From a virus: 16,144 nucleotides of DNA. Position numbers and translations under genes: made by a program. The notes under the pieces are model-generated. The model saw only the letters and a program-made list of their open reading frames with translations, had not been told where the DNA came from and ran no database searches. Every line of letters begins with the position of its first letter. The first letter of the stretch is position 1. This document shows positions 1 to 16,144 of this stretch, in pieces. The stretch is from the UHGV virus genome UHGV-0251712; one strand, given 5' to 3'.

Positions 1-463
1 CAGCCTCTATGAACTTCGCGGCGGTTTCCTGATTCAGCTCCTTCGGGATGATATGCCCACGGCACAGCGTGCTGAAATTGCTCTGCATCCGGTTACGCTC
101 CTTCGTCGTCTTGGTCAGGTAGAGGTAGCAGGTGTGCTTCAGGTACGGACGGACGGCAAAGCCGGACTGATAGAGCGTTACTTCTCGCTCATGCCCGAAG
201 GCGACACGACCTTGCAGGACATTGACCTCTCGGCGAGGGAAATGCGCATCGGCGACAACCGCCTGTGCCTGCACACCCTGTCCGACGCGGAAGACCTGAT
301 TAAAAGCGCTCATAACACATCTGTCGGCCAGAAGGCGCGCCTCTGAGTTATCCGACGGACATACCGGGAACAGTGTAATTTCCCGGCAGGAGCGAAAAAT
401 TTGAAAGGCGCATCTTACTCTTTTCGCTTTCAAAAAAAGAGTGGTCTTCGCGTCAACACACAT
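1..463 (-). CDS. hypothetical protein, N-terminal part only (gene continues past the window start); first in-frame ATG at 463-461
   Basis: Minus-strand reading frame open from 463 to position 1 (at least 154 codons) with E. coli-like codon usage (ctg/ccg/cgt/ggc rich). No family recognised. It sits about 100 bp downstream of the sbmC stop, where K-12 synteny would place yeeA, but the translation is not membrane-protein-like. An antisense plus-strand ORF (53..346, open back to position 2) also exists, so the coding strand is uncertain. Confidence 0.3.
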   Translation of the reverse strand, partial: MCVDAKTTLFLKAKRVRCAFQIFRSCREITLFPVCPSDNSEARLLADRCVMSAFNQVFRVGQGVQAQAVVADAHFPRREVNVLQGRVAFGHEREVTLYQSGFAVRPYLKHTCYLYLTKTTKERNRMQSNFSTLCRGHIIPKELNQETAAKFIEA

Positions 464-526
464 GTCCGTCGGATAACTCAGAGGCGCGCCTTCTGGCCGA
501 CAGATGTGTTATGAGCGCTTTTAATC
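298..526. repeat. 65-bp perfect inverted repeat (arms 298-362 and 462-526) with a 99-bp spacer
   Basis: The reverse complement of 298-362 (gattaaaagcgctcataacacatctgtcggccagaaggcgcgcctctgagttatccgacggacat) equals 462-526 exactly. Identity stops at both outer flanks. The left arm lies inside coding sequence on both strands. The right arm sits immediately upstream of the ATG at 463. Confidence 0.9.
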
Positions 527-545
527 TTCATTACGGAGTTTCTGC

Positions 546-687
546 GTGCGTGCCGATAAGTCATTAAGCCCGTTTGAAATCCGGGTATACCGCCATAACC
601 GCATTGTGCATGGTACTCGGGTCGCGCTGGCATTCCTGCTCACTTTTCTCATTATCCGCCTGTTTACTATCCCGGAAAGCACCTTCC
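546..687 (+). pseudogene. possible N-terminal fragment (about 46 codons, GTG start, GGAG 7 nt upstream) of an inner-membrane protein gene (yeeA-like?) running antisense into the sbmC 3' end
   Basis: The plus-frame translation [40 protein letters not shown] has a charged N-terminus followed by a clean TM helix. The minus-strand sbmC frame stops looking like a GyrI domain at the same position (about 688). The yeeA attribution rests on synteny only. Confidence 0.25.
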
Positions 688-1043
688 TGCAAGAGGCTAT
701 TAAAGAACTGATACCAGGGTTTAGCAAAATCATCACCGACTACACGAGCTACCGCCACCGCATACTGACCACCTGAAATTTCTGTCAAAATGACGCCCTC
801 ACTGTTTTCGGGAAGCGTAAAGTAACCCGGCACCGTCACGACGGTGTCGCAGCGTAATTTTTCGGCGGGTGTTTCATCTGGATTGTCGTAATAGACAGCA
901 ACCCACTCCTTCGGCACAATATTTTTGCTATCTACCCACATCATCAACTGCTCAAAGCCTTTCTTTACCGTCTGTTCCCACGGGCCAACGAGATGGAAAC
1001 CTGCAACGGTACGTTTCTCTTCCTGCTTAATCTCGTAGTTCAT
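564..1043 (-). CDS. sbmC: DNA gyrase inhibitor SbmC/GyrI (GyrI-like domain). Residues 1-118 are canonical; the last ~40 aa are aberrant (hydrophilic, lacking the terminal beta-hairpin)
   Basis: The N-terminus [47 protein letters not shown]... matches SbmC. The C-terminal [22 protein letters not shown]... does not resemble the conserved FEVYLNN...EMYV end of GyrI-like domains. It is instead the antisense of a TM-helix coding stretch. Confidence 0.75.
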
Positions 1044-2536: not shown

Positions 2537-2599
2537 ATGATGAATGACGGTAAGCAACAATCTACCTTTTTGTTTCACGATTACGCGCAACACCCCTGA
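2537..2599 (+). pseudogene. sbcB: 5' remnant of the exonuclease I gene: MMNDGKQQSTFLFHDY (16 native codons), then junction and stop
   Basis: The translation matches the SbcB N-terminus MMNDGKQQSTFLFHDYETFG... through codon 16. From about 2585 the sequence no longer encodes ETFGTHPALD, and a TGA follows at 2597. Confidence 0.7.
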
Positions 2600-3205
2600 G
2601 AACCGCCATGAACAAGGGTTTCATGATTTGTGATTTTAGTTTGGTACGCAATTTGGTACACAACACAATTTTCACTTCAGCGGGTAGTCATCAAACTCAC
2701 CATAACGAGCATCGTTAATGATGTATGTGATCACCACAAACATCACATCTGGACTAGTTCCGCTTTCATGCGCAGGTATTTGTTCACGCCTCCCTTTCTG
2801 CAAATCATAAAGATGAGATTTTGGGGTTTTGGGATATCTTTTATCCGCAGTTCTCTATCCATTATGCAAACCAGTAATGAACCATCACCGTGTGATAGTG
2901 AGGCATCTGCCACGATAAGCGCAGAGAAATGATGCAGTGGTGGGCGGACTGGATTGATGAGAAGGTGGAGTGAACCACCTTAACCACTATCGAAGAGCAC
3001 AAAGCCTTGCAATCCAGTACAAAACTTTGTTTGTCTCATCAACTACCGCAAGTATCGATCGATGGAGCCTTGGATGATAGAATAAATTCGTAGCACTTTT
3101 TTTTAAAGTATCATCTCGCTCATGGTTACGTGATAGAAAAAGGACAAAATAATCTTAAATTTAAAAGCATATAAATCATACAAATAAAATTGTGGTGGGT
3201 GCGTA

Positions 3206-4204
3206 ATGTCTGATATTCGACAAAATAGAATAGAGTTAAATGAAGTGCATATAGCTCGCTCCATGGCTATATTTCTAGTTGTTTTACTTCATTCTTCAGG
3301 TGCTTTTTTTATGCAGTTTGGAGATCATTGGTGGATTGTTAATTTATACAGTTCTTTTTCAAGGCAGTGTATAGGTCTTTTTTTTCTTATCACTGGATAC
3401 CTATTTTATGAAAAAAACATAAACCCAACAGCACACCTAAAAAAAGGAGTGTCGAGATTGATAATACCATTCATATTTTGGTGGGTGGTATATTATATCT
3501 ACAATACAGAGATTAACAACAAATCATATAATTCTATATTTCAACCAAGTGAGGTACACCTTTGGTTTATGTATGCATATATTTGTATATATATGTTTTT
3601 ACCAATAATTTGCAACTCATTAAAACACATACCAACATATTACATTTTAATTATTGTAAGCATGCTTTTTTACTCAAATTCCATTGTCCCTGTAGTTGAT
3701 AAAACGATAATGAAGGTAACATGGTTTGATGTAAAACTAGTGTCTGAAAATGGGATATATATTCTTATTGGGGCAATAATAAGGAGATATAACGATAAAA
3801 TAAAAAAATGCAATGCAGTGATACCATTGGTGATTATTGTTATGTCGTGCCTGTTAACATCAATGGCATCTAGTTGGTGGTCTGAAATAACAGGCAGGCC
3901 TGAGCAGTTTTTCTTTAAAAATACATCTCCACTTGTATTAATATGTGTTATTTCTTCATTTACATTATGCATGTCATACTCAAAAATAATTAGCAAAAGA
4001 TTAATGAATTTATTTACATCAATATCAAATGTTTCATTTGGTATATACTTCGTCCATTTCTTTTTTGTTAGAGAAATTAGACTCGGGTATAATCAAGAAA
4101 ACGCATATTTCATGATACCATTGCTAACAATCATTTATTTTTTAATGTCATATTGCATATCAATAATTCTAAGCAAGATCCCTTTGCTTAGAAAAGTAAT
4201 ATAA
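3206..4204 (+). CDS. oac: acyltransferase-3 family integral membrane O-antigen O-acetyltransferase (Sf6 Oac-like), AT-rich serotype-conversion gene
   Basis: 332-aa polytopic membrane protein with very low GC (about 30%). The N-terminal ..IARSMAIFLVVLLHS.. motif is typical of acyltransferase_3. It lies stop-to-stop convergent with the tailspike gene, exactly as oac does next to gene 14 in Sf6. The symbol is given by context and size, not by verified sequence identity. Confidence 0.65.
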   Translation: MSDIRQNRIELNEVHIARSMAIFLVVLLHSSGAFFMQFGDHWWIVNLYSSFSRQCIGLFFLITGYLFYEKNINPTAHLKKGVSRLIIPFIFWWVVYYIYNTEINNKSYNSIFQPSEVHLWFMYAYICIYMFLPIICNSLKHIPTYYILIIVSMLFYSNSIVPVVDKTIMKVTWFDVKLVSENGIYILIGAIIRRYNDKIKKCNAVIPLVIIVMSCLLTSMASSWWSEITGRPEQFFFKNTSPLVLICVISSFTLCMSYSKIISKRLMNLFTSISNVSFGIYFVHFFFVREIRLGYNQENAYFMIPLLTIIYFLMSYCISIILSKIPLLRKVI

Positions 4205-6451
4205 TTATGGATTGTTAACCTTCCATCTTTTATCATAGTAATGCAAATATCCCTGAGACGTTAGTGTCATATGGACAATCGCTTGGGATATTTGCGCGTT
4301 CTGAAAATTAACTCTAATAAATACTTGAGTGCCAATTGTTATTTTTGATACAGATATCCCGTCAAGAGTCTTGTCTCCTTGTATTTTATTAACCCAAACA
4401 CCTGACGAAGACAAGGTTGCCTGATCCTTTCCGCTTATACTAAATATAATTTTACCTCCTGTTGCCAGTGAGGTGTTTACTCCATTTTGAGATATTGGAA
4501 TTATTGTAATTTCACCAGCAATGAAAACACCATTTTTGTATTTAGATACCTCACCTTGTTCACAAATTAAAATATCAATACATCTACCCCATGGTACTAG
4601 GATTGTTGCATTTTCAGTTTTTACTTGTGGATATACAGCTGAAACACCTGCAGATTCGAAATTTTTTGCTGATAAAACAACTCCGTCAGATCCATTTCTA
4701 AATCCCATTCCTGTATGATCACCGTATGTCCTTCCATGAGAGATGAATCCTCTTACATACTCTTCGGATACTGCGCTACCAGTGGTTTCCTTCTGAAAGA
4801 TAAATGTTTCACCAAAAGAAAAACCACGACATTGGTATTGGCTCTGATAATTTTCTGAGTTCTTAAAAAAGGAAATGCCTTTATATGCTGTTACATAGCC
4901 AGATCTAAATTGAACGGAAACAGGGGTTGTTTGTTCATCTGGAGGTAACTCCACAAAATGTGTAACATTTTGGCTGTTTGATTCCTGTAACCATACAGAA
5001 ACACCATCTATAATCATGGTTGAAAATCTACTGTTTATTTCTAACTCAGAAAAATCAAGAACATGATCACCTGTAACACCCTCAACTCCAAACCCATCAA
5101 TACTTAAAGACCTGAACTGATAGAATTTATGCGGTAACTCACAACCATCAGCTGCAATATTCATTGCGCTAGTGTACATTAATGGGTAAGGACTTATAAT
5201 TGGTTCATATGTTTCTCTATCTATTGCAGCCCCCCAAAGATACCCAACATTACAATGTCTTGCCCAGTTGGAAGAGAATGTAGTAGATGTGCCAGCCAAA
5301 CCGAAACCATAGATACAATCATATGCTTGGTTGTTTGTAACATTACTGACAAAGCATGATAAGGGAAGTGCAAATTTATAATGTAGAAATATGTTATTTT
5401 TAATATCATATTCACTACCCCCGCCAAAGGTTTGTGTTTGACCAGAAATGGCCAATGGGCTACCTGAATATTCATCGTCAGCGTTGCGAAAACACATATT
5501 CTTTACTTTAAGATTGTGCCCCCAACTTCCCATAACAAAACCACCACTTCCTGATGTATAAACAATACTTTTTTGTGGATTAATCCCATATAGATTTAGA
5601 CTAATCCCTTCCCATCTAAACTGGCTAATGTCAATTTGAGTGTTACCAATATATATAGGCTGGTCTATGAAAACAGGAAGTTTAGTTAGATAAGCTTTAT
5701 TAAGTGCTAATCCATCATTTGTTACACCTGTTAAATCAACGCCCCCCATGCTTGGCGCTCTAGGATACCCTGTGGCCTGAATAGTACTCCAGTCAATATA
5801 TGGAGCATCCATCCACGCTCCAAACATACGTGGTGTTACGTACCCCTTACCTTGAAGATCACGTTTCCAGCGTTTACCACCCACAGTGACAATGACCATG
5901 CCGTTATCATCTGCAGAAGTAGAATCTGTGAAATCGGCCACAAACAGACCACCACCAGTATCACCTGATACTGTCGGCTTCATGCCTGTAGTGTGGAAGT
6001 CGACGAAAATCTTTTGCTGATCTCGCTCAGGCTCAATTGTCCTTAACATTGCTATATCAGGGCATGTCCCGATGTATTTAAGACCGTCTTCCCCTGATAG
6101 AGATACTTTAAGCTGATCAGGATCATATTTAAGAACATTCGGAAAATAGAACTGCTGTGCACCATATGCATCATAAACAGCCATAGAATGGCCTTGCACA
6201 GTTACGAACTTGGCAATCTGTCCGTTATATACCGGATATCCAGCAGCGTTAATGATGATTGGTTGCGAAACAGGAACGCGAGAACCGTCTTCATTCTCCA
6301 CATAAACCTGAATCTGGTTTTCAGGATTTACCGGGTCAGTGTCAATTTTACCGATATAAATTTTGCCATTGGCTACGGCTTTAAAAGAACGAGCCATAGT
6401 GAAGAGTTGCGAAGGCATGCTTACCACAACATTTGCGGTGATATCTGACAT
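4205..6451 (-). CDS. tailspike protein: Sf6/HK620-type N-terminal head-binding domain fused to a distinct (unidentified) receptor-binding/depolymerase domain
   Basis: Residues 1-115 ([56 protein letters not shown]...VLKYDPDQ) are about 95% identical to the Sf6/HK620 tailspike N-domain and about 70% to P22 gp9. The true start is the second ATG (6451), which has a GGAG 7 nt upstream. The remaining ~630 aa do not match the Sf6 or P22 catalytic domains as remembered. Confidence 0.85.
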
Positions 6452-6572
6452 TTCATTGCTCCAGACGAATGATATGATGCAACCATGATGTGATTGCATA
6501 CCGAAATGGTACTATTGAGTATTTATCCAGTAGGTTACGATGCCATTCCACCCAACTGGTGAGGCATCAAGG

Positions 6573-6833
6573 ATGTACAGCAAATACGACGAGGCGCAGT
6601 TTCACTTGAGACTTCCGCATGAACTCCACGCGAAAATTAAGCAGCGTGCGAAGATGAATAACAGGTCGCTGAACTCAGAGATAATTGCAGCGATTGAAGA
6701 ATCATTGGCTAAACAAAGCTCTGCATCTGTTTACATTGACGATGCAGAGCGTATGGCAGAACAACAATCTGATATGGTTAAGAAAATTGTCTTTGATACG
6801 CTCAAGGAGCTATATAAAAAAGACAGCAGCTAA
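6573..6833 (+). CDS. mnt: Mnt-like ribbon-helix-helix repressor (P22 immI maintenance-of-lysogeny repressor family)
   Basis: C-terminal ..DDAERMAEQQSDMVKKIVFDTLKELYKKDSS matches P22 Mnt ..NDAERLADEQSELVKKMVFDTLKDLYKKTT. The N-terminal RHH region FHLRLPHELHAKIKQRAKMNNRSLNSEI matches FNFRMPMEVREKLKFRAEANGRSMNSEL. The start is chosen at the ATG aligning with the P22 Mnt N-terminus. Confidence 0.8.
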   Translation: MYSKYDEAQFHLRLPHELHAKIKQRAKMNNRSLNSEIIAAIEESLAKQSSASVYIDDAERMAEQQSDMVKKIVFDTLKELYKKDSS

Positions 6834-6852
6834 CCATCAGTTACGGAGGATT

Positions 6853-6933
6853 TATGCAAAGAGATATGCTGAACATTGCGTTCTACATATTTGGTTTTTG
6901 CACGTTCCTGGTGTTTGCGAAGCTATTCTGACA
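6853..6933 (+). CDS. possible 26-aa hydrophobic peptide MQRDMLNIAFYIFGFCTFLVFAKLF, overlapping the 3' end of the convergent ejection-protein gene
   Basis: ATG preceded by GGAGGA (4-5 nt spacer) directly after the mnt stop. The whole peptide is one TM-like helix. There is no other support. Confidence 0.15.
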
Positions 6934-9316
6934 ACGCATCAGACTTGGCACCCTGAGTAAGGGCGTTAATGGCCTTTTGCGCCTGCTGCATGGCTTTCTC
7001 AAACGCTGTTGATCCGCGTGGGGTGTTTGCCATTCGGAGCATTGCATTTCTGAATGGCTCGCTCTCATAGGCGCGAGTAAGAAGTCCGTAGCTTACTGCT
7101 GCGCCAGTTGTCGCCGGGTTCATTGCCGTCCCATATCCGATAATGAACGGGATGGTTTGCTGCCCTGTTGGTGTTGTTACTGCCGCTTTTGCTGCCTGCT
7201 GAGTGGACTGAAGGTAGTTTTTCAATCCTTTCAGATAAGCGGCTTCCTGACCTTTAAATGTGATGCCAGTCTGGTTTTGCAGGATGTTAAGCTGTCGAAG
7301 GAACTGGTCAGGTGAACCACCTGATTTCTCTATCGCCTTTCCAATAATGCCATTGCGCATTTGCGCTCTTCCAACGCGACCAACTGAGTTATACAGCGTC
7401 TTAATTTCCGATTTGTTCTTGCTGAATAGCATGTTGTTGACAACTTCCGGCGTCAGGTCGCCTTTCATGAGAACATTCTTCAGCCTGGTATTCTTTAGTT
7501 TCGCCGCTTCGTCAGCGTATACGGCATTGGCCTGCTGATATTTACGGAGAGTATCGTTGCCAAGATTCTGACCAATGGCACCATTGATATCGTCTGTCAT
7601 CGCCTTGTAAACGCGCTGAATGGCAGCATCGGAACGGTTTGGTAACACTGGTCGTTCACCCTTCACGTCCATTCTGAACTGGCTGCGCAGATCGCTTAAT
7701 TGCTTCAAATCCAGATTTACCGGACCATCAGGACCAGCATTGCGAACAAGCTCATCACGATATGACTGAAGTTTTGAAATAGTCTCGTTATCAGCAACCT
7801 TACCAAGCTTCTGCAGGTTAGATATTTCTGTATCAATCTGCTGAATTGCTCGCGCAGGCTGAATGTTTACTCCAGCCATAGCATTCTGAACCTGCTCCAG
7901 TCGATTACCGGCGGCACGACGAATTCCTGATGTTTTCGCTTTAAGGCTGTCAATAACAACAGATGGATCATACTCACCGAATTTATCAGCAAATCTCTGC
8001 ACCAACTGGCTTCTCGCTTCCTGTTGCGTTGCTCTCATTCCGCTTGTGCCAGCCAGAGGAATATTTTCTGCTGTAGTCTGCGCCATTTTTCCGACGCGGG
8101 AAGTAGGCTGTAACAGGTCTGTGGTGTGCAGAGGAACTCCTTCACGCTCTGCAAATCTGATAGCTTGCTGTGCTTCTGGCGCGATAGCACCACGAACGCC
8201 ACGATAAGCAGCACCTAATCCACGTCCGGCAGCGTTAATAGCACCGCCAGCAAGTACACCAACGCCTAAATCGGTGGCGAGTGCTTCCGCATCATCTTTC
8301 GCACTATTTGCAGCAAGTGATCCAACTGCGTTTTCTGCTAGAAGGCGAGTTGCCCCCTGAGCAATTCGACCAGCAAGTGTTGGTGCCTGTGCTGCCGCTC
8401 TCTCAACGCCAGCAGGAGTGAGGTAAGGCAATGCTTCAGCAAATACCCTTCCCTCTGTCGTTTGTGGAGTCAGCGCGCCTTGCCGAAGGCCAAAGTCCCG
8501 CTCTAATCCCTGCGTTGTTACTCGTGGTGCTGGTTGATATGTACCATCGCCAATGCCGAGTTTACCGCCAGCCCAAGCCGCCGCGCTTGTTACAGCATCA
8601 GTGAGTTCAGCAGGTATGTTCGCTACGTTGATTCCTGCCTGTAGTATGCCGCGCCCGGTTTCAGCAAGTCCATTACCAAGGTCAGACATTATTCCGCCTT
8701 GCTGCTGAACAGGTTTCGGTGCGACAGAACTTACGGGTTGAGGTGGCTGCTGACTGGCTGCCTGCTGCTCAATCTGAGCAAATGGATTATTTGGGTCTGA
8801 CTGCACACCTGATGCCGATACTTGTTCGGATGACTGTACTTCCAGTTGTGCAAACGGGTTGTTAGGGTCTTGCTGAGGATGTACCTTTGCAGAGGTGGCG
8901 CGCTGTTCGACTGTTGAGTCTGTCACCGGGTCACCCGCCCATTGAGCAAAGCGATCATCAACGTAACCGCGGCCTTCAGGTCCTGGCGTATATTCACCAC
9001 GCTTTGCCTTCATAACGTTGCCGGGACCGTCGTGATAAGCCTGAAGAGCGTCACGCCAGTTACCAAACTGCTGGTACATCTTTGCCAGATAGCGCGCGCC
9101 AGCGTCAGCCTGATATTCGGGGTTTTGCATTTGCTCATCGGTATAACCCATATCACGCCATGTCCCAGGCATGACCTGAGTCAATCCTACAGCCCCGGCG
9201 GAGCTTACTGCGGCAGGGTTGTAAGAAGACTCCTTGGCACCCAGTGCAGTCATCAACCCTTCTGGCACACCGTAACGTGCGCCAGCCTGCTCTAACAAAT
9301 CACGGTAATTAGCCAT
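6923..9316 (-). CDS. DNA ejection/injection protein (P22 gp16 / Sf6 gp13 position) with an N-terminal soluble lytic transglycosylase (SLT) domain
   Basis: 797-aa protein. Its N-terminus carries the SLT signature (..GAKESSYNPAAVSSAGAVGLTQVMPGTW...YLAKMYQQFGNW..AYHDGPGNV). It lies directly upstream of the tailspike in the Sf6/P22 late-operon order. The start is contiguous with the stop of the upstream gene (TAAATG). Confidence 0.65.
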   Translation of the reverse strand: MANYRDLLEQAGARYGVPEGLMTALGAKESSYNPAAVSSAGAVGLTQVMPGTWRDMGYTDEQMQNPEYQADAGARYLAKMYQQFGNWRDALQAYHDGPGNVMKAKRGEYTPGPEGRGYVDDRFAQWAGDPVTDSTVEQRATSAKVHPQQDPNNPFAQLEVQSSEQVSASGVQSDPNNPFAQIEQQAASQQPPQPVSSVAPKPVQQQGGIMSDLGNGLAETGRGILQAGINVANIPAELTDAVTSAAAWAGGKLGIGDGTYQPAPRVTTQGLERDFGLRQGALTPQTTEGRVFAEALPYLTPAGVERAAAQAPTLAGRIAQGATRLLAENAVGSLAANSAKDDAEALATDLGVGVLAGGAINAAGRGLGAAYRGVRGAIAPEAQQAIRFAEREGVPLHTTDLLQPTSRVGKMAQTTAENIPLAGTSGMRATQQEARSQLVQRFADKFGEYDPSVVIDSLKAKTSGIRRAAGNRLEQVQNAMAGVNIQPARAIQQIDTEISNLQKLGKVADNETISKLQSYRDELVRNAGPDGPVNLDLKQLSDLRSQFRMDVKGERPVLPNRSDAAIQRVYKAMTDDINGAIGQNLGNDTLRKYQQANAVYADEAAKLKNTRLKNVLMKGDLTPEVVNNMLFSKNKSEIKTLYNSVGRVGRAQMRNGIIGKAIEKSGGSPDQFLRQLNILQNQTGITFKGQEAAYLKGLKNYLQSTQQAAKAAVTTPTGQQTIPFIIGYGTAMNPATTGAAVSYGLLTRAYESEPFRNAMLRMANTPRGSTAFEKAMQQAQKAINALTQGAKSDALSE

Positions 9317-10648
9317 TTACTGCCCCAAAGATGGAAGATATCCGTAGCGATTAATGAAGTCGATTGACAGCTCGGGGTGCTGCTTCAGGTAATCTATAGA
9401 AGCCTGAGGCGCTTCCACTCGCTTGATACCGTTTTGCTGAACGTACTTACCAACCGCCTCATTACGCTTCTGGTTGAGCGTGTTCAGGATGACGCCAGCG
9501 TTGCGACGAAAGGACTCCTCGCTCTGCGAGTTCTGCAGCGAACCAACAGCCTGGTCGAGCTTTTTGCCCTCGGCATCAGAAAGTGCGCCCATGCCTCGCA
9601 TGGCCTGAACCGCTGTCAGGTATGCTTGGGATTTAAAGGTATCAAGTCGTGCCTGAGTGTCTGCAGCCTGTGAGCCTGGAACGTTGGGGATTACTCCACG
9701 TAAGCCTGTAATGCTCTTAAGTGAAGGAGAACTAACGATATCGTTCAGAGTGAACATGCTGGTTGTGAGGGTGTTGATGCCGTCTTTGTAGCCATCATTT
9801 AGCGCTTGCTGCTTCTGCTGCAACTGCTGGTTGTTGGCTGCTATGCGGCTCTGTATTTCCTGGCGCTTCAGGTCGTTAGTTTCTGCTGATAGCATCCGGT
9901 CAAGGCGCTTATTTTCGTTGTTAATGCGGTTTGTTTCTGCGTCCAGATTAATGCGCTGCTGACCTAAATTCGCCTGGATATCTTGCCCGCGCATTGTGAT
10001 TGCCTGATTCCGAGCGGCGGTTTGCGAATCCAGATCCTGACCGCGCATGGTAACCTGGCGACCCTGCATTTTATCCTGTAGGTCAAAGTATTTTTCGGGT
10101 CCGAGACTGTTCATCCCCAGGTGATCGACAAATTCGCCGAACTGCCGCGGGTTCTGTTGGTACATCTGAGCGACATCCTGAGGATTAACGCCAACACGAG
10201 CTAACTCACCGGCGTTGTTTTGCAGCCATGATTGCATTGCTTCTGGAGACGATGACGCAAGGCGTGCGCCAGCCGCTAAGGTGCCGATAGAATTACGCTG
10301 ATCTTCATCAATGAATCCCATGCCTTTACGAACGGATTCAATCTGTTCTGGATATTGAGTAGCCAACTGACGCAAAGCACCGCGATCACCAGACGCATAA
10401 GCATTAGCGTATGCCTGCTGAAATTCTTTCTGCCGCTGAGCCTGCTTTTCCTGCTGAAACACCCCCGCAATACCTGAAAGGCCTTGCAAAGCAGTCAGCC
10501 CAACATTGTTAGCGCCTGAACGCTCAATATCATTGTTCTGCCTGATAAGCTGAAGCGTATTGCCGATGTCATTTACGCTCGGAGCGTTTGAGTTGACGCC
10601 GCCGATACCAGCCAACAATCCGCCGTTTGTTCCTTGCCAAGTAGCCAT
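9317..10648 (-). CDS. DNA ejection protein (P22 gp20 / Sf6 gp12 position), Q-rich coiled-coil protein
   Basis: 443-aa protein, called by position between the gp7-like stub and the gp16-position gene. It contains internal near-repeats (TMRGQDLDSQ / TMRGQDIQAN). AAGGGG lies upstream of the ATG. Confidence 0.55.
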   Translation of the reverse strand: MATWQGTNGGLLAGIGGVNSNAPSVNDIGNTLQLIRQNNDIERSGANNVGLTALQGLSGIAGVFQQEKQAQRQKEFQQAYANAYASGDRGALRQLATQYPEQIESVRKGMGFIDEDQRNSIGTLAAGARLASSSPEAMQSWLQNNAGELARVGVNPQDVAQMYQQNPRQFGEFVDHLGMNSLGPEKYFDLQDKMQGRQVTMRGQDLDSQTAARNQAITMRGQDIQANLGQQRINLDAETNRINNENKRLDRMLSAETNDLKRQEIQSRIAANNQQLQQKQQALNDGYKDGINTLTTSMFTLNDIVSSPSLKSITGLRGVIPNVPGSQAADTQARLDTFKSQAYLTAVQAMRGMGALSDAEGKKLDQAVGSLQNSQSEESFRRNAGVILNTLNQKRNEAVGKYVQQNGIKRVEAPQASIDYLKQHPELSIDFINRYGYLPSLGQ

Positions 10649-10657
10649 GATTACCCC

Positions 10658-10835
10658 TTAAAACAACGAGCCAAGCAATCCGATACCAGCACCAATGCCA
10701 GCGCCCCAAGGCGTTGATGTTCCCAAAAGGCTGGCAAGACCTGCACCGGCAATCGCACCAGACGTGCCACCGCTAATTGCAGTCTGAAGACTTGATGGTT
10801 TAACCAAAGAGTAGTTGGCTTTGGGGTGACGTGAA
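10658..10835 (-). pseudogene. 3' terminal fragment of a gp7-like ejection protein gene (glycine-rich hydrophobic C-terminus), truncated by a deletion
   Basis: Only about 60 codons remain, ending ..GAIAGAGLASLLGTSTPWGAGIGAGIGLLGSLF immediately before the gp20-position gene. The frame runs upstream into the ssb fragment with no plausible start. P22 gp7 is about 229 aa. Confidence 0.35.
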
Positions 10836-11267
10836 GTGCAGCTGCACGACGGCAACCTGACAATAGCAACGTCAGAACAATGGCGAGATAAAAATACTGG
10901 CGAGCAAAAGGAATTGACTGAATGGCATCGTGTTGCTGTATCCGGGAAACTGGCTGAGGTCGTGGGGCAGTATGTGAAAAAAGGTGATCAGATTTATTTC
11001 GAGGGAATGCTGAGAACCAGAAAGTGGAAAGACCAGTCAGGGCAAGACCGTTACACAACCGAGGTTCATGTCGGAATTAATGGCGTGATGCAAATGCTTG
11101 GCGGCATTGGCGACAGCAAACAACAAGCAGCCAGCAGGCAATCACAGAAGCCACAGCAGCAATCATCACCAGCACAACACAACGAACCTCCGATGGATTT
11201 TGACGACGATATACCCTTTGCACCAGTAACTCTCCCCTTCCCTCGTCACGCTATTCACGCAATTTAA
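10836..11267 (+). pseudogene. ssb: single-strand DNA-binding protein gene lacking its first ~35 codons, with a 15-codon extension after the DDDIPF tail
   Basis: The translation ..[27 protein letters not shown]...[12 protein letters not shown]...MQMLGG...[12 protein letters not shown] aligns with E. coli SSB from residue ~36 onward. A TGA lies 3 codons upstream in frame and there is no ATG. DDDIPF is followed by [15 protein letters not shown] instead of a stop. Confidence 0.85.
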
Positions 11268-11280
11268 TCAGGAGAAAATC

Positions 11281-11577
11281 ATGCCAGCGCCTCAGTATGG
11301 TGCGGATGACCCGCGCCGCTGTTCCGGCAATTCCGTATCGGAGGTGCTGGATAAATTCAGAAAAAACTACGACCGGATAATGTCGCTACCGCAGGAAACA
11401 AAAGAGGAAAAGGAATTTCGCCACTGTATATGGCTTGCAGAGAAAGAAGAACGAGAGCGAATTTACCAGACATCAATCCGACCATTCCGCAAAGCCACAT
11501 ATACCCACTTCCCTGAATATATCGACCCGCGCCTGCGTAATTACCGCTCACGCTATGGCTCTATCAGTAATGACTGA
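11281..11577 (+). CDS. hypothetical phage early (PL-operon) protein, 98 aa
   Basis: Strong RBS (AGGAG, 5 nt spacer) before the ATG. It is co-oriented with ssb and the downstream ea-type genes. No family recognised. Confidence 0.5.
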
Positions 11578-11587
11578 GGAATTTACC

Positions 11588-11755
11588 ATGAGAGGACTTG
11601 CATACAATCCCGGCATTCTTCCGGCAGAAATGATTATTCGCCAACGCGTAAAGCCAATGCCATCGAGAGAGGAATTGCTTAAGAGAAATTCTTTTCCGTC
11701 AGTAAATCAAAACAAATATCTGAATGCGATGTGGCGTAAAGGAGGCAAGCAGTGA
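11588..11755 (+). CDS. hypothetical small protein (55 aa; an alternative start at 11567 is possible)
   Basis: GAGGA lies 8 nt upstream of the ATG at 11588. The ORF overlaps the previous stop (ATGA) and ends overlapping the next start. Confidence 0.3.
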
Positions 11756-12051
11756 GTGTATGTCTTATTGATAAACGTCGACGTGGGCAACAAATACCAT
11801 CTGTTGGAATGCCGAATCACACATGGTTTTGCGTACTTGATATCGATGGTATGGATGCGTTGGTTGACACTCGTCATTACTGCGATACCGCAACAGCTAC
11901 TCCGGCGAAAGCAAAGAAAATGGCTGCTCTGATAGAAAACTGGACTCCACCTGATGGTTGGTGCAATGGGAATGATCGAGATTGGCACGAAAAAATGAAG
12001 GGCTATATCTGCGATTTTTTACGTAAATGCAACGGATTCAGGGTGATGTGA
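11752..12051 (+). CDS. hypothetical protein, 99 aa, GTG start
   Basis: GGAGG lies 6 nt upstream of the GTG at 11752. Cys/His-containing (..[25 protein letters not shown]..). Its stop overlaps the next start (TGACATG). Confidence 0.45.
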
Positions 12052-12052
12052 C

Positions 12053-12742
12053 ATGAGCAAGATTGCCTATCAGGCACTGCGTGAAAAGGCAGAGAAAGCA
12101 ACGTGTGGTGTGTGGTCGCTCGAATATGGAGAGGGCCGATTTGATGGTGATGATGCGCTAATTCATCGTGAAGTTGCTGGATATATTCCCATTTGCAGAA
12201 TTGAAGGAGCGCATCCTGAAAGCGGTTTCGATGAAGATTTCCAAATGGAACAGCAGGCCAATGCTGAATTCATCGCAGCAGCCAGTCCAGCTACCGTGCT
12301 GGCACTACTGGATGAACGGGAAAGAAACCAGCAGTACATCAAACGCCGCGACCAGGAGAACGAAGATATTGCGCTAACGGTAGGGAAGCTGCGTGTTGAT
12401 CTGGAAGCCGCAGAGAAGCGCAACGCAAAATTACAAAGCGAGAATGCATACATCCGCAACAGGTACAAAGAACTGGACCTATTAATCGGGAAAAACATTC
12501 TGGTCATGCAGGCTGCCATTATCGAATGGCAATCTACTGGCGACGCTAAAAGCGGACTGGCATGGATTTATAACACACTGTTTGGCCCAGGCGAATTGCC
12601 GGACGAATCTGAGAAAGATGCTCAGGCCTACTTTAATCGCAAAAATGAACCGATTGACGAAAAGCTTATGGAGCTTCACAAGTGGTTTTGGGAACAAAGT
12701 GAAGCCGAGCGTGTCGCTGGCATTCGCATCAAAGGAGAGTGA
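12053..12742 (+). CDS. coiled-coil phage early protein, possibly Ead/Ea22-like family
   Basis: 229-aa protein with an acidic N-terminal half and a central coiled coil (..KRRDQENEDIALTVGKLRVDLEAAEKRNAKLQSENAYIRNRYKELD..). Resembles 'ead/Ea22-like' prophage proteins as remembered; not verified. Confidence 0.45.
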   Translation: MSKIAYQALREKAEKATCGVWSLEYGEGRFDGDDALIHREVAGYIPICRIEGAHPESGFDEDFQMEQQANAEFIAAASPATVLALLDERERNQQYIKRRDQENEDIALTVGKLRVDLEAAEKRNAKLQSENAYIRNRYKELDLLIGKNILVMQAAIIEWQSTGDAKSGLAWIYNTLFGPGELPDESEKDAQAYFNRKNEPIDEKLMELHKWFWEQSEAERVAGIRIKGE

Positions 12743-12743
12743 T

Positions 12744-12941
12744 ATGGATAAAAACACCACTGCTTACTGGAATCTGTCACTTGATACCGAATGCCCAAAA
12801 TGCGGTCACAATTTCGATCTGCTTTGTGACGCTGATTTCTGGGAGTTTTCTGGAGCTAAACAGGCATGTGAAGAAATAAAAGGTTACAAAACATGCTGTC
12901 CGGAATGTAACCATGAATTTAAAACAGATTTCATATATTGA
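12744..12941 (+). CDS. 65-aa C4 zinc-ribbon protein
   Basis: MDKNTTAYWNLSLDTECPKCGHNF...CCPECNHEF: two CxxC pairs. GGAGAG lies before the ATG, and the start sits 1 nt after the previous stop (translational coupling). Confidence 0.45.
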   Translation: MDKNTTAYWNLSLDTECPKCGHNFDLLCDADFWEFSGAKQACEEIKGYKTCCPECNHEFKTDFIY

Positions 12942-12951
12942 GGCATAACAA

Positions 12952-13398
12952 ATGACCACTATTACCAAAGAACGTATTGAATTGTTCATTAAAAATCCGC
13001 TTGAAAACGGGCTTACTCGTGGCGAACAAATGGAACTGGCACGAATTGCACTGGCATCACTGGAACGCGAACTGATTCGCCACGAGCATGCCAAATGGTC
13101 TGACTCCACATTTGGCTGCGTTGGCCCCATTGGTCCACTGAAACACCTCTCAAAAGAGACACTGGAAGCCGCAGCCGAACCAGACGATCTTAGCGAGTGG
13201 GCTGATATGCAGTTTCTGTTGTGGGATGCACAGCGCCGTGCTGGCATCAGCGATGCTGAAATTACCGCTGCTATGGAAGATAAATTGAAGATCAACATGG
13301 AGCGCCAGTGGCCTGAGCCAAAAGATGGTGAGCCTCGCTTGCACATTAAAGAACTCGGCAACTCTCCGGTAATTCCGGATGGTTCGGATGATGGTTAA
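12952..13398 (+). CDS. MazG-like all-alpha nucleotide pyrophosphohydrolase-type protein (prophage 'dATP/dGTP diphosphohydrolase' type)
   Basis: 148-aa protein with KETLEAAAE...DLSEWADMQFLLWDAQRRAGI, which fits the ExxE-(x12)-ExxD metal-binding pattern and helix arrangement of MazG/DUF550 proteins. GAGG RBS. Confidence 0.45.
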   Translation: MTTITKERIELFIKNPLENGLTRGEQMELARIALASLERELIRHEHAKWSDSTFGCVGPIGPLKHLSKETLEAAAEPDDLSEWADMQFLLWDAQRRAGISDAEITAAMEDKLKINMERQWPEPKDGEPRLHIKELGNSPVIPDGSDDG

Positions 13399-13547
13399 CC
13401 ATTTTTGATGTAAAAACATCCTTCTCTGAGGGCTTGCTCCTCAATAAGTTTGGTTTTATAATTACGCGCAATGAAGGTGGGCGGTTCGCTACTATACAAG
13501 AGGGGTGTACCCCGCGAACTTAACCCACCACCACTTTCCTCTCTACT

Positions 13548-14195
13548 ATGAATTGCAAATCAATGACCAGAAAATATGCCATCATGATCGATGCTGGTTT
13601 TTTGCGTGCAAAATTAGGCACAAAAGATAAGCCAATCGATGCGGAAGTAATCAAAGTATTTGTAGAAAAACTAACAAAAAGGCATGAACTAGAAGGCATG
13701 ATTTTGCACCGTGTTTATTATTACGATGCAGAGCCGCTTACCGGAATACAGACGCATCCGATTAGTGGAGAGAAAATTGACTTCTCTGAAACAGAAGTTT
13801 CTAAAAGAAATAAAGCCATGCTTGATGAGTTGAAAAGAACTCCTTTTTTTGCAGTAAGACTTGGAGAGACAAACTTTCGAGGATGGAAGGTTGACCCATG
13901 GGCATTAAAGAGCAGTGACTCTAAAACTTCTTCCATTAATGCCTACAATGTTAAGCCTAATGTTCAGCAGAAAGGCGTTGATATGCGTATTGCGTTAGAT
14001 ATGTCATCAATGTCATTAAAAAAACAGGCAGATATATATGCTTTGGTGACTGGTGATTCAGATTTTGTTCCAATTATAAAATTTGCTAGGAAAGAAGGCC
14101 GACAGATTTTTCTATACACACTGGGACATAGTGTCAAGCAGACGATGTATGAACATTCCGATTTGTTAGTGCCAGATACCATGGATAAATTGTGA
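13548..14195 (+). CDS. NYN-domain (LabA/PIN-like) predicted ribonuclease, low-GC cargo gene
   Basis: 215-aa protein with the N-terminal ..YAIMIDAGFL.. (first Asp), the central QQKGVDMRIALDM motif, and the GDSDFVP motif (ALVTGDSDFVPIIKFARKEGRQI) diagnostic of PF01936 NYN domains. GC is clearly lower than the flanks. It is preceded by a 150-bp non-coding leader. The start may be the internal ATG at 13563. Confidence 0.7.
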   Translation: MNCKSMTRKYAIMIDAGFLRAKLGTKDKPIDAEVIKVFVEKLTKRHELEGMILHRVYYYDAEPLTGIQTHPISGEKIDFSETEVSKRNKAMLDELKRTPFFAVRLGETNFRGWKVDPWALKSSDSKTSSINAYNVKPNVQQKGVDMRIALDMSSMSLKKQADIYALVTGDSDFVPIIKFARKEGRQIFLYTLGHSVKQTMYEHSDLLVPDTMDKL

Positions 14196-14374
14196 TTGGA
14201 GCTAGGAATAGGTTAGCCGCGCCTTAATAGATGATCCATTCTGGCAGAAAAAGAACACAAAGAAGTAGCCTAAGTGCCCCCAACTGCATTTACACCCAGG
14301 CCCTCATTGCGGGTCTTTCTATTTACAGAGATGGCTGAGCAGAACGCCAAGAACTGACAACCTGAACGAATACG

Positions 14375-14400
14375 AACCCGCCTAGTGCGGGTTTTCTTTT
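14375..14400 (+). terminator. rho-independent terminator (AACCCGC-CTAGT-GCGGGTT + TTTTCTTTT)
   Basis: 7-bp GC-rich stem followed by a T-run. Confidence 0.6.
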
Positions 14401-14405
14401 ATCTG

Positions 14406-14430
14406 AACTCGCTACGGCGAGTTTTGTTTT
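14406..14430 (+). terminator. second, near-duplicate rho-independent terminator (AACTCGC-TACG-GCGAGTT + TTTTGTTTT)
   Basis: Same architecture as the upstream terminator with one stem transition. The T-run ends 1 nt before the next ATG. Confidence 0.55.
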
Positions 14431-14742
14431 ATGGAGATGATTATGGCCTGTTCAACATTCAACCATTTAACGTTACAGAAATACCAGCCAGACCCTGAAG
14501 ATTTATGCTCACTGTGTGGCGGAAATCATGGTAAAGCCGCCATGATCGAATGTAAGGACAAAATCCACATTTGCCTTAATTGCGTTGATGTCCTCGTTGA
14601 TATCAAAAATGAGAGAGAAGATAAAAAGCGTAGCGAGGCTATTCGCGCATTAGATTCATGGATGCGAGATGGGTATAGTGCTGCGCAAATTTATGACTTC
14701 GCAATATCAAAAGGCGAAATACCAGGAGTGCGCATCGAATAA
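14431..14742 (+). CDS. small C4 zinc-finger protein (about 100 aa; probable start at 14443, MACSTFNHL..)
   Basis: CSLCGG...CLNC motif pairs. GGAGA lies 5 nt upstream of the ATG at 14443. It is followed by a terminator at 14784-14808. Confidence 0.5.
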   Translation: MEMIMACSTFNHLTLQKYQPDPEDLCSLCGGNHGKAAMIECKDKIHICLNCVDVLVDIKNEREDKKRSEAIRALDSWMRDGYSAAQIYDFAISKGEIPGVRIE

Positions 14743-14783
14743 GACGTAACCAATATTCGAATTGAAGAACTGAAAGAACACCA

Positions 14784-14808
14784 AGCCGCCTGATGGCGGT
14801 TTCTTTTT
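14784..14808 (+). terminator. rho-independent terminator (AGCCGCC-TGAT-GGCGGTT + TCTTTTT)
   Basis: Stem-loop plus T-run 40 nt after the stop of the zinc-finger gene. Confidence 0.55.
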
Positions 14809-14823
14809 GCCTGGAGAATTAAG

Positions 14824-14928
14824 ATGACCGATACCAGCCTGATTCCTGAGAAAGAAGTGATGAACAAGCTCGGTGTTTCATCACGTCAGACAATCTGGAA
14901 CTATACCAAACGGCACGGATGGATATAG
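14824..14928 (+). pseudogene. AlpA/TorI-family excisionase/regulator gene truncated after codon 32 (34-aa product ending ..KRHGWI*)
   Basis: GGAGA RBS. MTDTSLIPEKEVMNKLGVSSRQTIWNYTKRHG matches the N-terminal HTH of AlpA/TorI/Vis proteins (..LGVSRSTIYR..K.G.FP..). It breaks exactly where the 36-bp int-derived repeat begins (14917). Confidence 0.5.
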
Positions 14929-15189
14929 GTTACTGGCGAACACATGATTTCAGAAGAACGCTTGTTACACGTCTGTCCGAGATGAATGTCGAGCCTCATG
15001 TTACTGAGCGAATGCTCGGTCATGAACTTGGCGGGATAATGTCCGTATACAATAAACACGATTGGATAGAGGCTCAGCGCAAAGCGTATGAGCTTCACGC
15101 TGATAAATTGTTCTGGCACATCAGGAGCATTTCTGATTAACGCCACCGTTAAGTGAAATCATGTGTTCGCCAGTAACCTATATCCATCC
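14917..15189. repeat. 36-bp perfect inverted repeat (14917-14952 and 15154-15189) flanking a 201-bp segment
   Basis: GGATGGATATAGGTTACTGGCGAACACATGATTTCA is present on the plus strand at 14917 and as its reverse complement at 15154. The flanking bases differ. Each copy encodes GMDIGYWRTHDF of the integrase. Confidence 0.9.
14919..15140 (+). pseudogene. int: tyrosine integrase C-terminal catalytic fragment (73 codons: box II HDFRRT, LGH, catalytic Tyr in ..MSVYNKH..)
   Basis: MDIGYWRTHDFRRTLVTRLSEMNVEPHVTERMLGHELGGIMSVYNKHDW.. contains the HxxR, H and Y catalytic elements of phage integrases. There is no N-terminal DNA-binding or core-binding part on this strand. Confidence 0.8.
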
Positions 15190-16144
15190 CTCCCCTTATT
15201 CTATTTACGAATCGGTTGGCTGCAGCGATGCTGATCGGTTTGTTTATGTCTTCTCCAGGGAAAAGAACATCATTGTACGTTGTCATGGCCTTATCGAGGA
15301 AAGGCTTAATTTGTTCGAAGATTGGACGGCGGATAACATTACCCATCTTGCTATGCTCTTTCGGTACGGTCCATACGTTGTCCAGCAGGTCAAATTCTGT
15401 CTTTGTTGCCAGCCTAAGCTCTGAGAGCCTCGCCCCCCACAGCATAAGCATCTGATGAAGGAGCTTATTTGACGTAGACGCACGGCTTCTTTCAATAGCA
15501 AGCCAAATCTTAGCCAGTTCGTGATACGACAGTACCCGATCCCCTACCTCAGCGCGGGAGCCGAAGTCCCTTGGCTGGATGCTCATAATTGCGCAACTAT
15601 CTATCAACTGACGCCGCATGCACCAACTAATTGCTGATCTTAGTTGACTTAGCACCTGCCTTGCTCGGCGTGGATTATCTTTTTCTTCTTCGGTAAGCAG
15701 GTCAACCCATTGCTTAACCGTGATAGAAGATGCCGGACGATTAGGAAAGGCGTCATGCATGCGCTTCATAACCGTTGATCGGTAAAGTGCCTGGGTCTTT
15801 TCTCTGAGAGTTGTAGAGACGTAGTTGTCGAACCAGTAGTCGAGACACTGGGCGACCGTCATGGAGTTCTCCACCTTCTCTTCAAAATAAGTGCGTGGAT
15901 CCGTTCCTGAGAAATAGAGCTTTCGCAAGTCAGCAGTGATCTGTCTGGCATCCTTCAAAGACAGGGATGGGTATCGACCAAGCCCAAGTCGATTAGGCTT
16001 GCCATGCCAGCGATAGCGGTACTGGAACTGGATGACCCCCTTCGGTGAAATTCGTACGCTGAGGCCATCGGCATCAGCCACTTCTTGTGGGCCCGAATAT
16101 GGTTTACCATAAATAGTACGCAGTTTTGTGTCGCTTATAGCCAT
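15149..16144 (-). pseudogene. int: P4/DUF4102-type tyrosine integrase N-terminal 331 codons (arm-binding and core-binding/early catalytic region), ending ..GYWRTHDFT* just before the second catalytic Arg and the Tyr
   Basis: The N-terminus ..LSVRISPKGVIQFQYRYRWHGKPNRLGLGRYPSLSLKDARQ.. is typical of P4-like integrases (IntS/IntA family). The ATG is exactly at the window end. Together with the plus-strand fragment it would make a ~404-aa integrase if the 201-bp segment were inverted. Confidence 0.85.

Follow-up and report, generated by a model that had tools for sequence, protein, structure and literature searches.

The window, that is, the whole 16,144-nt stretch of the viral genome record UHGV-0251712 that was analyzed, begins with a short fragment of a Bacteroidota conjugative-transposon gene, continues with a segment of the Escherichia coli chromosome that carries the sbmC-yeeA intergenic region, most of sbmC, dacD, and the first bases of sbcB, and ends in a P22-like prophage. 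A perfect inverted repeat lies at its left end, close to the border between the Bacteroidota and the E. coli DNA. The pieces of the window were mapped by local BLAST against reference loci, with the following results.

1-151, minus strand: traG fragment A, 99.3% identical to Parabacteroides goldsteinii DSM 19448 (locus L015, 7220 to 7070), continuing past the left edge of the window
147-298, plus strand: traG fragment B, 100% identical to P. goldsteinii DSM 19448 (L015, 7296-7447)
298-461, forward: intergenic region of NCTC11476 (locus L002, 6001-6164), 100% identical
298-362: left arm of the repeat, native yeeA leader, 100% identical to Nissle 1917 (locus L001, 4001-4065) and NCTC11476 (L002, 6001-6065)
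363-461: spacer, the remainder of the intergenic region between sbmC and yeeA, which directly adjoins the left arm in all reference genomes
462-684, plus strand: 223-nt copy of the yeeA leader and the first 139 nt of yeeA (GTG at 546), 99.6% identical to the reverse complement of L002 (6065 to 5843)
462-526: right arm of the repeat, the initial 65 nt of the inverted copy 462-684
685-2585, forward: sbmC codons 1 to about 119, dacD, and the first bases of sbcB (L002, 6294-8194)
685-1043, minus strand: sbmC codons 1 to about 119 (forward alignment 677-2585 to L002 6286-8194, with the exact junction at 684/685)
14600-14920, forward: left flank of the int inversion (locus L006, 1400-1720, plus)
14909-15153, plus strand: inverted 245 nt of the int 3' end (L006, 2027 to 1783, minus)
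15154-16144, forward: right flank of the int inversion (L006, 1984-2974, plus)

The repeat search placed the arms at 298-362 and 462-526, in agreement with the preliminary description; they are 65 nt long each, complementary at 100% of their length (65 of 65 positions), and separated by a spacer of 99 nt. The spacer contains the TTGAAA hexamer reported earlier as well as the small hairpin (AGCGAAAA/TTTTCGCT). By our own estimate, random sequence of 16 kb is expected to contain ~(1.6e4)^2/2 x 4^-65, or ~1e-31, pairs of 65-nt arms, and thus a chance origin of the repeat is ruled out. The RNA corresponding to positions 290-535 has a predicted fold of -161.9 kcal/mol (z = -19.8 relative to shuffled sequences). 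No Rfam family was matched in a scan of the whole window, and a promoter and terminator scan of positions 250-1150 found no promoter-like or terminator-like site within the 229-bp unit formed by the arms and the spacer. The unit is flanked by AGACCT (292-297) on the left and by TTCATT (527-532) on the right, with no direct repeat between these flanks.

In the native context, represented by the annotated genomes of Nissle 1917, NCTC11476, and E2863, yeeA and sbmC share one strand and are separated by an intergenic region of 197 bp, measured from the sbmC stop to the yeeA GTG. The left arm, which keeps its native orientation relative to sbmC and dacD, had been taken for coding sequence on both strands; in every reference genome it is a non-coding stretch of the leader, located 20-84 nt upstream of the yeeA GTG. 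A single, unduplicated copy at the orthologous locus, as anticipated, is found in 5,419 of the 5,426 complete E. coli genomes, where the left arm together with the spacer (298-461, 164 bases) matches at 5,423 places (median 1), always between sbmC and yeeA. When the 229-bp unit is compared with the same 5,426 genomes, the matches cover only these first 164 bases; coverage of the unit reaches at least 80% in none of them, the whole unit is absent from 72,556 plasmids as well, and none of the 5,426 genomes has both arms or either junction.

The inverted copy 462-684 stands in for 129 nt of native sequence (L002 6165-6293), comprising 14 intergenic nucleotides and the last 115 nucleotides of sbmC. 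The right arm is not bounded on its outer side, since it runs unbroken into 158 further bases of inverted native sequence. The repeat is the overlap between two copied pieces, the inverted 223-nt copy and the forward piece next to it. As for the coding potential of the rearranged segment, the fused open reading frame 564..1043 spans only positions 1-121 of the 155 positions of a GyrI-like profile. The two genes previously assigned to the repeat are both chimeric read-through frames: the plus-strand frame 53..346 is the traG fragment reading into the intergenic region, and the minus-strand frame starting at ATG 463 stays open, according to hand translation, past the left end of the window across three unrelated pieces.

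The leftmost part of the window (1-297; G+C content 59%) has no match in any E. coli genome searched and encodes a part of the TraG-family conjugative-transposon ATPase of Bacteroidota. Homologues of its product, from Phocaeicola dorei, are named TraG, and the occurrences of a probe 35-mer are confined to Bacteroidota genomes. Fragment B matches positions 170-230 of the TIGR03783 profile (E = 4e-14), and the reverse complement of fragment A encodes ...KTTKERNRMQSNFSTLCRGHIIPKEL..., as in P0001, P0002, and P0036. In the native gene the two fragments share a strand, with B lying 75 nt downstream of A, and they are collinear at this distance in 10 Bacteroidota loci, namely, 9 of the 14 loci from the 35-mer search and the locus L004. 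Since the pieces are on opposite strands in the window, a further strand switch is implied at 147-151. The junction between traG and the E. coli sequence falls exactly at the outer edge of the left arm (298); it lies midway through the traG reading frame and shows no mobile-element end. If the record extends to the left of the window, a further inverted repeat of about 152 nt would be expected there.

A sister event was found in the prophage integrase gene, 14 kb away. The native xis-int sequence is followed up to position 1720 of L006, and its forward course is resumed at position 1984; by our own arithmetic, the native sequence loses 263 nt (L006 1721-1983) and has 233 nt in their place (14921-15153 of the window). 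The event creates a 44-nt repeat (14909-14952 and 15154-15197), removes 62 nt, and shortens the Int protein to 331 aa, versus 392 aa for the native protein in E2863. The same arrangement was found in no other genome: the best of 2,569 covers 84% collinearly, and the part missing from it is the inverted piece. The int repeat had been suggested to belong to the same class of events as the 65-nt repeat, and its mapping to L006 bears this out; the int rearrangement is of the same type as the sbmC-yeeA one. The remaining comparable parts of the window are collinear with the references.

In total, the window contains six junctions in 16 kb that are not shared with other genomes, and four of them lie within 700 nt.

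147-151: fragment A to fragment B of traG, overlap GGACG (5 nt)
298: traG to E. coli, overlap G (1 nt)
461/462: no overlap
684/685: no overlap, with AAGCAC shared 2 nt away
14917-14920: overlap GGAT (4 nt)
15153/15154: no overlap

Five of these junctions flip the strand, and one unites two phyla. The five strand-flip joins connect points that are 226, 99, 451, 307, and 201 nt apart, and the misplaced pieces measure 152, 164, 223, and 245 nt. Among the five strand-flip junctions, just two have an overlap of at least 2 nt (5 and 4 nt). The junction-spanning sequences have no match in genome, metagenome, or viral contig collections, and an exact-protein look-up for the SbmC fusion and the truncated Int likewise found no match.

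The P22-like prophage (2586-16144) is inserted between dacD and sbcB at a site common to 480 genomes. Its join with dacD was considered as a further chimera and rejected on account of these genomes, and the arrangement in which the prophage separates dacD from sbcB is natural by this comparison. The prophage is about 13.5 kb long here, and E2863 has a full copy of 42 kb. The DNA-ejection gene (9317-10648) adjoins genes of the early region, and the gene for the single-stranded DNA-binding protein (10836-11267) is short of about 26 profile positions at the N-terminal end; a natural deletion and another chimera are both candidate origins of the junction near 10650-10835. A similarly reduced prophage is present at argW in strain GPEC1292 (L003). 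In the early region, 13548-14195 encodes a 215-aa NYN-domain protein (PF01936, E = 1.6e-11), and the stretch that houses this gene (13396-14327) has no counterpart in the two reference prophages compared; the protein may be an accessory or defence cargo. At the other end, the region 2968-6108 differs from both reference prophages in its acyltransferase (PF01757) and in the part of the tailspike that binds the receptor, while the head-binding N-terminus of the tailspike is conserved in both. Such a serotype-specific exchange of modules is usual among P22-like phages. The last base of the window (16144) is the first base of the integrase ATG on the minus strand, and the window length is not a round number; this point may be the end of a whole contig or a cut at a gene boundary. 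If the window is the whole contig, the chimeric joins of the sbmC-yeeA region and of traG are at its left end.

The shape of the repeat, two perfect terminal repeats around a short core, had led to the proposal of a MITE-like non-autonomous element in which 65-bp terminal inverted repeats enclose a 99-bp core. The IS-derived MITEs of enterobacteria do have terminal inverted repeats, a short non-coding core, and a total length of about 230 bp. In contrast to them, the unit described here occurs once, with arms that belong to the normal intergenic sequence of a conserved locus. The search with the 229-bp unit revealed no dispersed copies in the 5,426 genomes and 72,556 plasmids, there is no target-site duplication at the flanks, and the continuation of the right arm into inverted native bases is at odds with an element end. 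As the arms are identical to the yeeA leader of all E. coli, a transposon origin is unnecessary, and by the copy numbers the MITE reading is refuted. A regulatory hairpin, in which an RNase III substrate would sequester a start codon, and a site-specific invertible switch were also among the earlier proposals; they are unsupported and hardly more credible. A transcript over both arms would indeed form a very stable predicted duplex; however, the two-arm structure is found in none of the other genomes, the start codon in question (ATG 463) is the first codon of a frame that combines three unrelated pieces, and the Rfam, promoter, and terminator scans gave nothing within the unit. For an invertible switch, both arms would be expected among strains, in either orientation, but no strain has two arms.

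Two further origins were considered and rejected. An engineering scar or transposon end of the familiar kinds (FRT, loxP, Tn5, Tn10, mariner), which had been brought up by a GGCGCGCC site, does not fit an arm that is 100% native intergenic sequence. A simple inversion between pre-existing repeats does not fit either, since the native loci are without a second arm and each of the events also deletes and duplicates sequence.

Given this context, the rearranged joins are most likely an amplification or assembly artefact of some kind, and a strand-switch chimera formed in vitro is the explanation that we consider somewhat more probable than all others together. The density of the junctions, the inter-phylum join in the middle of a gene, the switch inside the foreign fragment, and the identity of the arms argue for an origin outside the cell; from the identity of the arms at all 65 positions, the copy is very recent. 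Graph (de Bruijn) assemblers need long exact overlaps to join sequences. The overlaps of 0-5 nt seen at the junctions are too short for a k-mer graph misjoin, and hence the joins were probably present in the molecules or reads. We suggest that a DNA polymerase switched in vitro onto nearby displaced single strands, and once onto the DNA of another organism, while a mixed gut sample underwent whole-genome or low-input amplification, and that the chimeric molecules were assembled afterwards. Along the minus strand, the record proceeds forward through dacD and two thirds of sbmC, after which a jump of 451 nt ahead with a flip is followed by 223 nt copied backwards (the 5' end of yeeA and its leader). 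After a second flip, 164 nt of the intergenic region are copied forwards, and the two arms result from the re-copying of the 65-nt leader stretch in this forward piece. The next jump leads to Parabacteroides traG for 152 nt, with another flip inside traG.

The chimeras formed in multiple displacement amplification (MDA) with the phi29 polymerase offer the closest comparison. Of the published MDA chimeras, 85% are inverted with an intervening deletion, mostly between points less than 10 kb apart (Lasken and Stockwell 2007, PMC1855051), and the preferred distances are about 80 and 250-300 nt (review PMC9984789). Similarly, the segments of the window are joined in opposite orientations with intervening deletions (62 nt in int, 129 nt at sbmC), the partners are a few hundred nucleotides apart (99-451 nt), some junctions have short overlaps (5 and 4 nt), and one join is of the occasional intermolecular kind, to unrelated DNA. 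There are also differences. Over 90% of the proximal inverted junctions of MDA overlap by at least 2 nt, with a mode of 5-8 nt (PMC1855051, PMC9984789), whereas three of the five strand-flip junctions in the window have no overlap. In addition, the flips of the window are paired at 150-250 nt, three times over, and are denser than the reported frequency of roughly one MDA chimera per 20 kb of reads.

Alternatively, the joins may never have existed in any molecule: an assembler, a gap-filler, or a read-merging step could have inserted pieces of read length the wrong way round or strung reads together where a contig ended. This is possible, though clearly less likely than a switch in vitro. The misplaced pieces are indeed read-sized, three of the five strand-flip junctions are without overlap and the inter-genome join has a single shared nucleotide, the inverted piece of int fits its gap (263 nt of native sequence becoming 233 nt), and the joint presence of E. 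coli and Parabacteroides suggests that the data came from a metagenome or were contaminated. However, graph assemblers do not join on 0-5 nt, the microhomologies GGACG and GGAT at two of the junctions suggest a polymerase rather than software, and the partners are found 99-451 nt away on the opposite strand, which is what intramolecular strand switching would predict.

A real rearrangement in vivo would begin where a fork stalled or broke in the sbmC-yeeA region and was then repaired by serial template switching (MMBIR/FoSTeS-like) or by alternative end-joining, with at least ~300 nt of Parabacteroides DNA captured after uptake in the gut. Such an origin we consider improbable, and it is a shade more improbable still that the joins are real in the full sense, that is, that break repair in a gut E. 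coli captured a piece of Parabacteroides traG and that int of the same cell line was hit in a similar way. As in template-switch events known in vivo (quasipalindrome correction, FoSTeS/MMBIR), an inverted adjacent copy stands beside a small deletion, the microhomology is 0-5 nt, and the unduplicated ancestral form is present in related genomes. The disrupted genes sbmC, yeeA, and the prophage int are dispensable, so that the arrangement would be viable, and by what is known of palindrome stability a repeat of 65 nt with a 99-nt spacer should be tolerated by E. coli. On the other hand, three independent multi-switch events in 16 kb would be needed, one of them within the foreign fragment, and none of the 5,426 genomes shows any of the three. 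The foreign DNA corresponds to the interior of a Bacteroidota gene, matches it at 100% identity, and is devoid of a mobile-element boundary, and the arms have not diverged. Bacterial quasipalindrome events act on pre-existing imperfect repeats across tens of nucleotides, whereas here there is no pre-existing repeat and the pieces are 150-250 nt long; the pattern is seen here three times in 16 kb, with a partner from another phylum in one case. The template-switch inverted duplication put forward in the preliminary description thus holds with respect to the topology, an adjacent inverted copy, but probably not as a chromosomal event, the context favoring a chimera made in vitro or in silico. 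The mapping of the pieces, the junction positions, and the lack of these junctions in other genomes are observations; from the context we infer that the joins arose outside the cell and that strand switching by a polymerase was probably the process responsible.

Most likely, the organism itself does not carry the inverted repeat, which has no function. The main value of its analysis lies in quality control: a long, perfect inverted repeat noticed on visual inspection may represent the overlap left in a strand-switch chimera, and comparison of the arm flanks with orthologous loci exposes such chimeras quickly. Taken at face value, the record would lead to three erroneous conclusions, namely, a MITE, a regulator of the RNase III type, and a gene transfer from Parabacteroides to E. 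coli. Other records from the same source are due for screening for short inverted segments before structural or horizontal-transfer claims are based on them. Nothing in the data requires a repair event in vivo. If the joins were true, the window would represent a natural chromoanasynthesis-like repair with capture of inter-phylum DNA in a bacterium, an unusual repair outcome.
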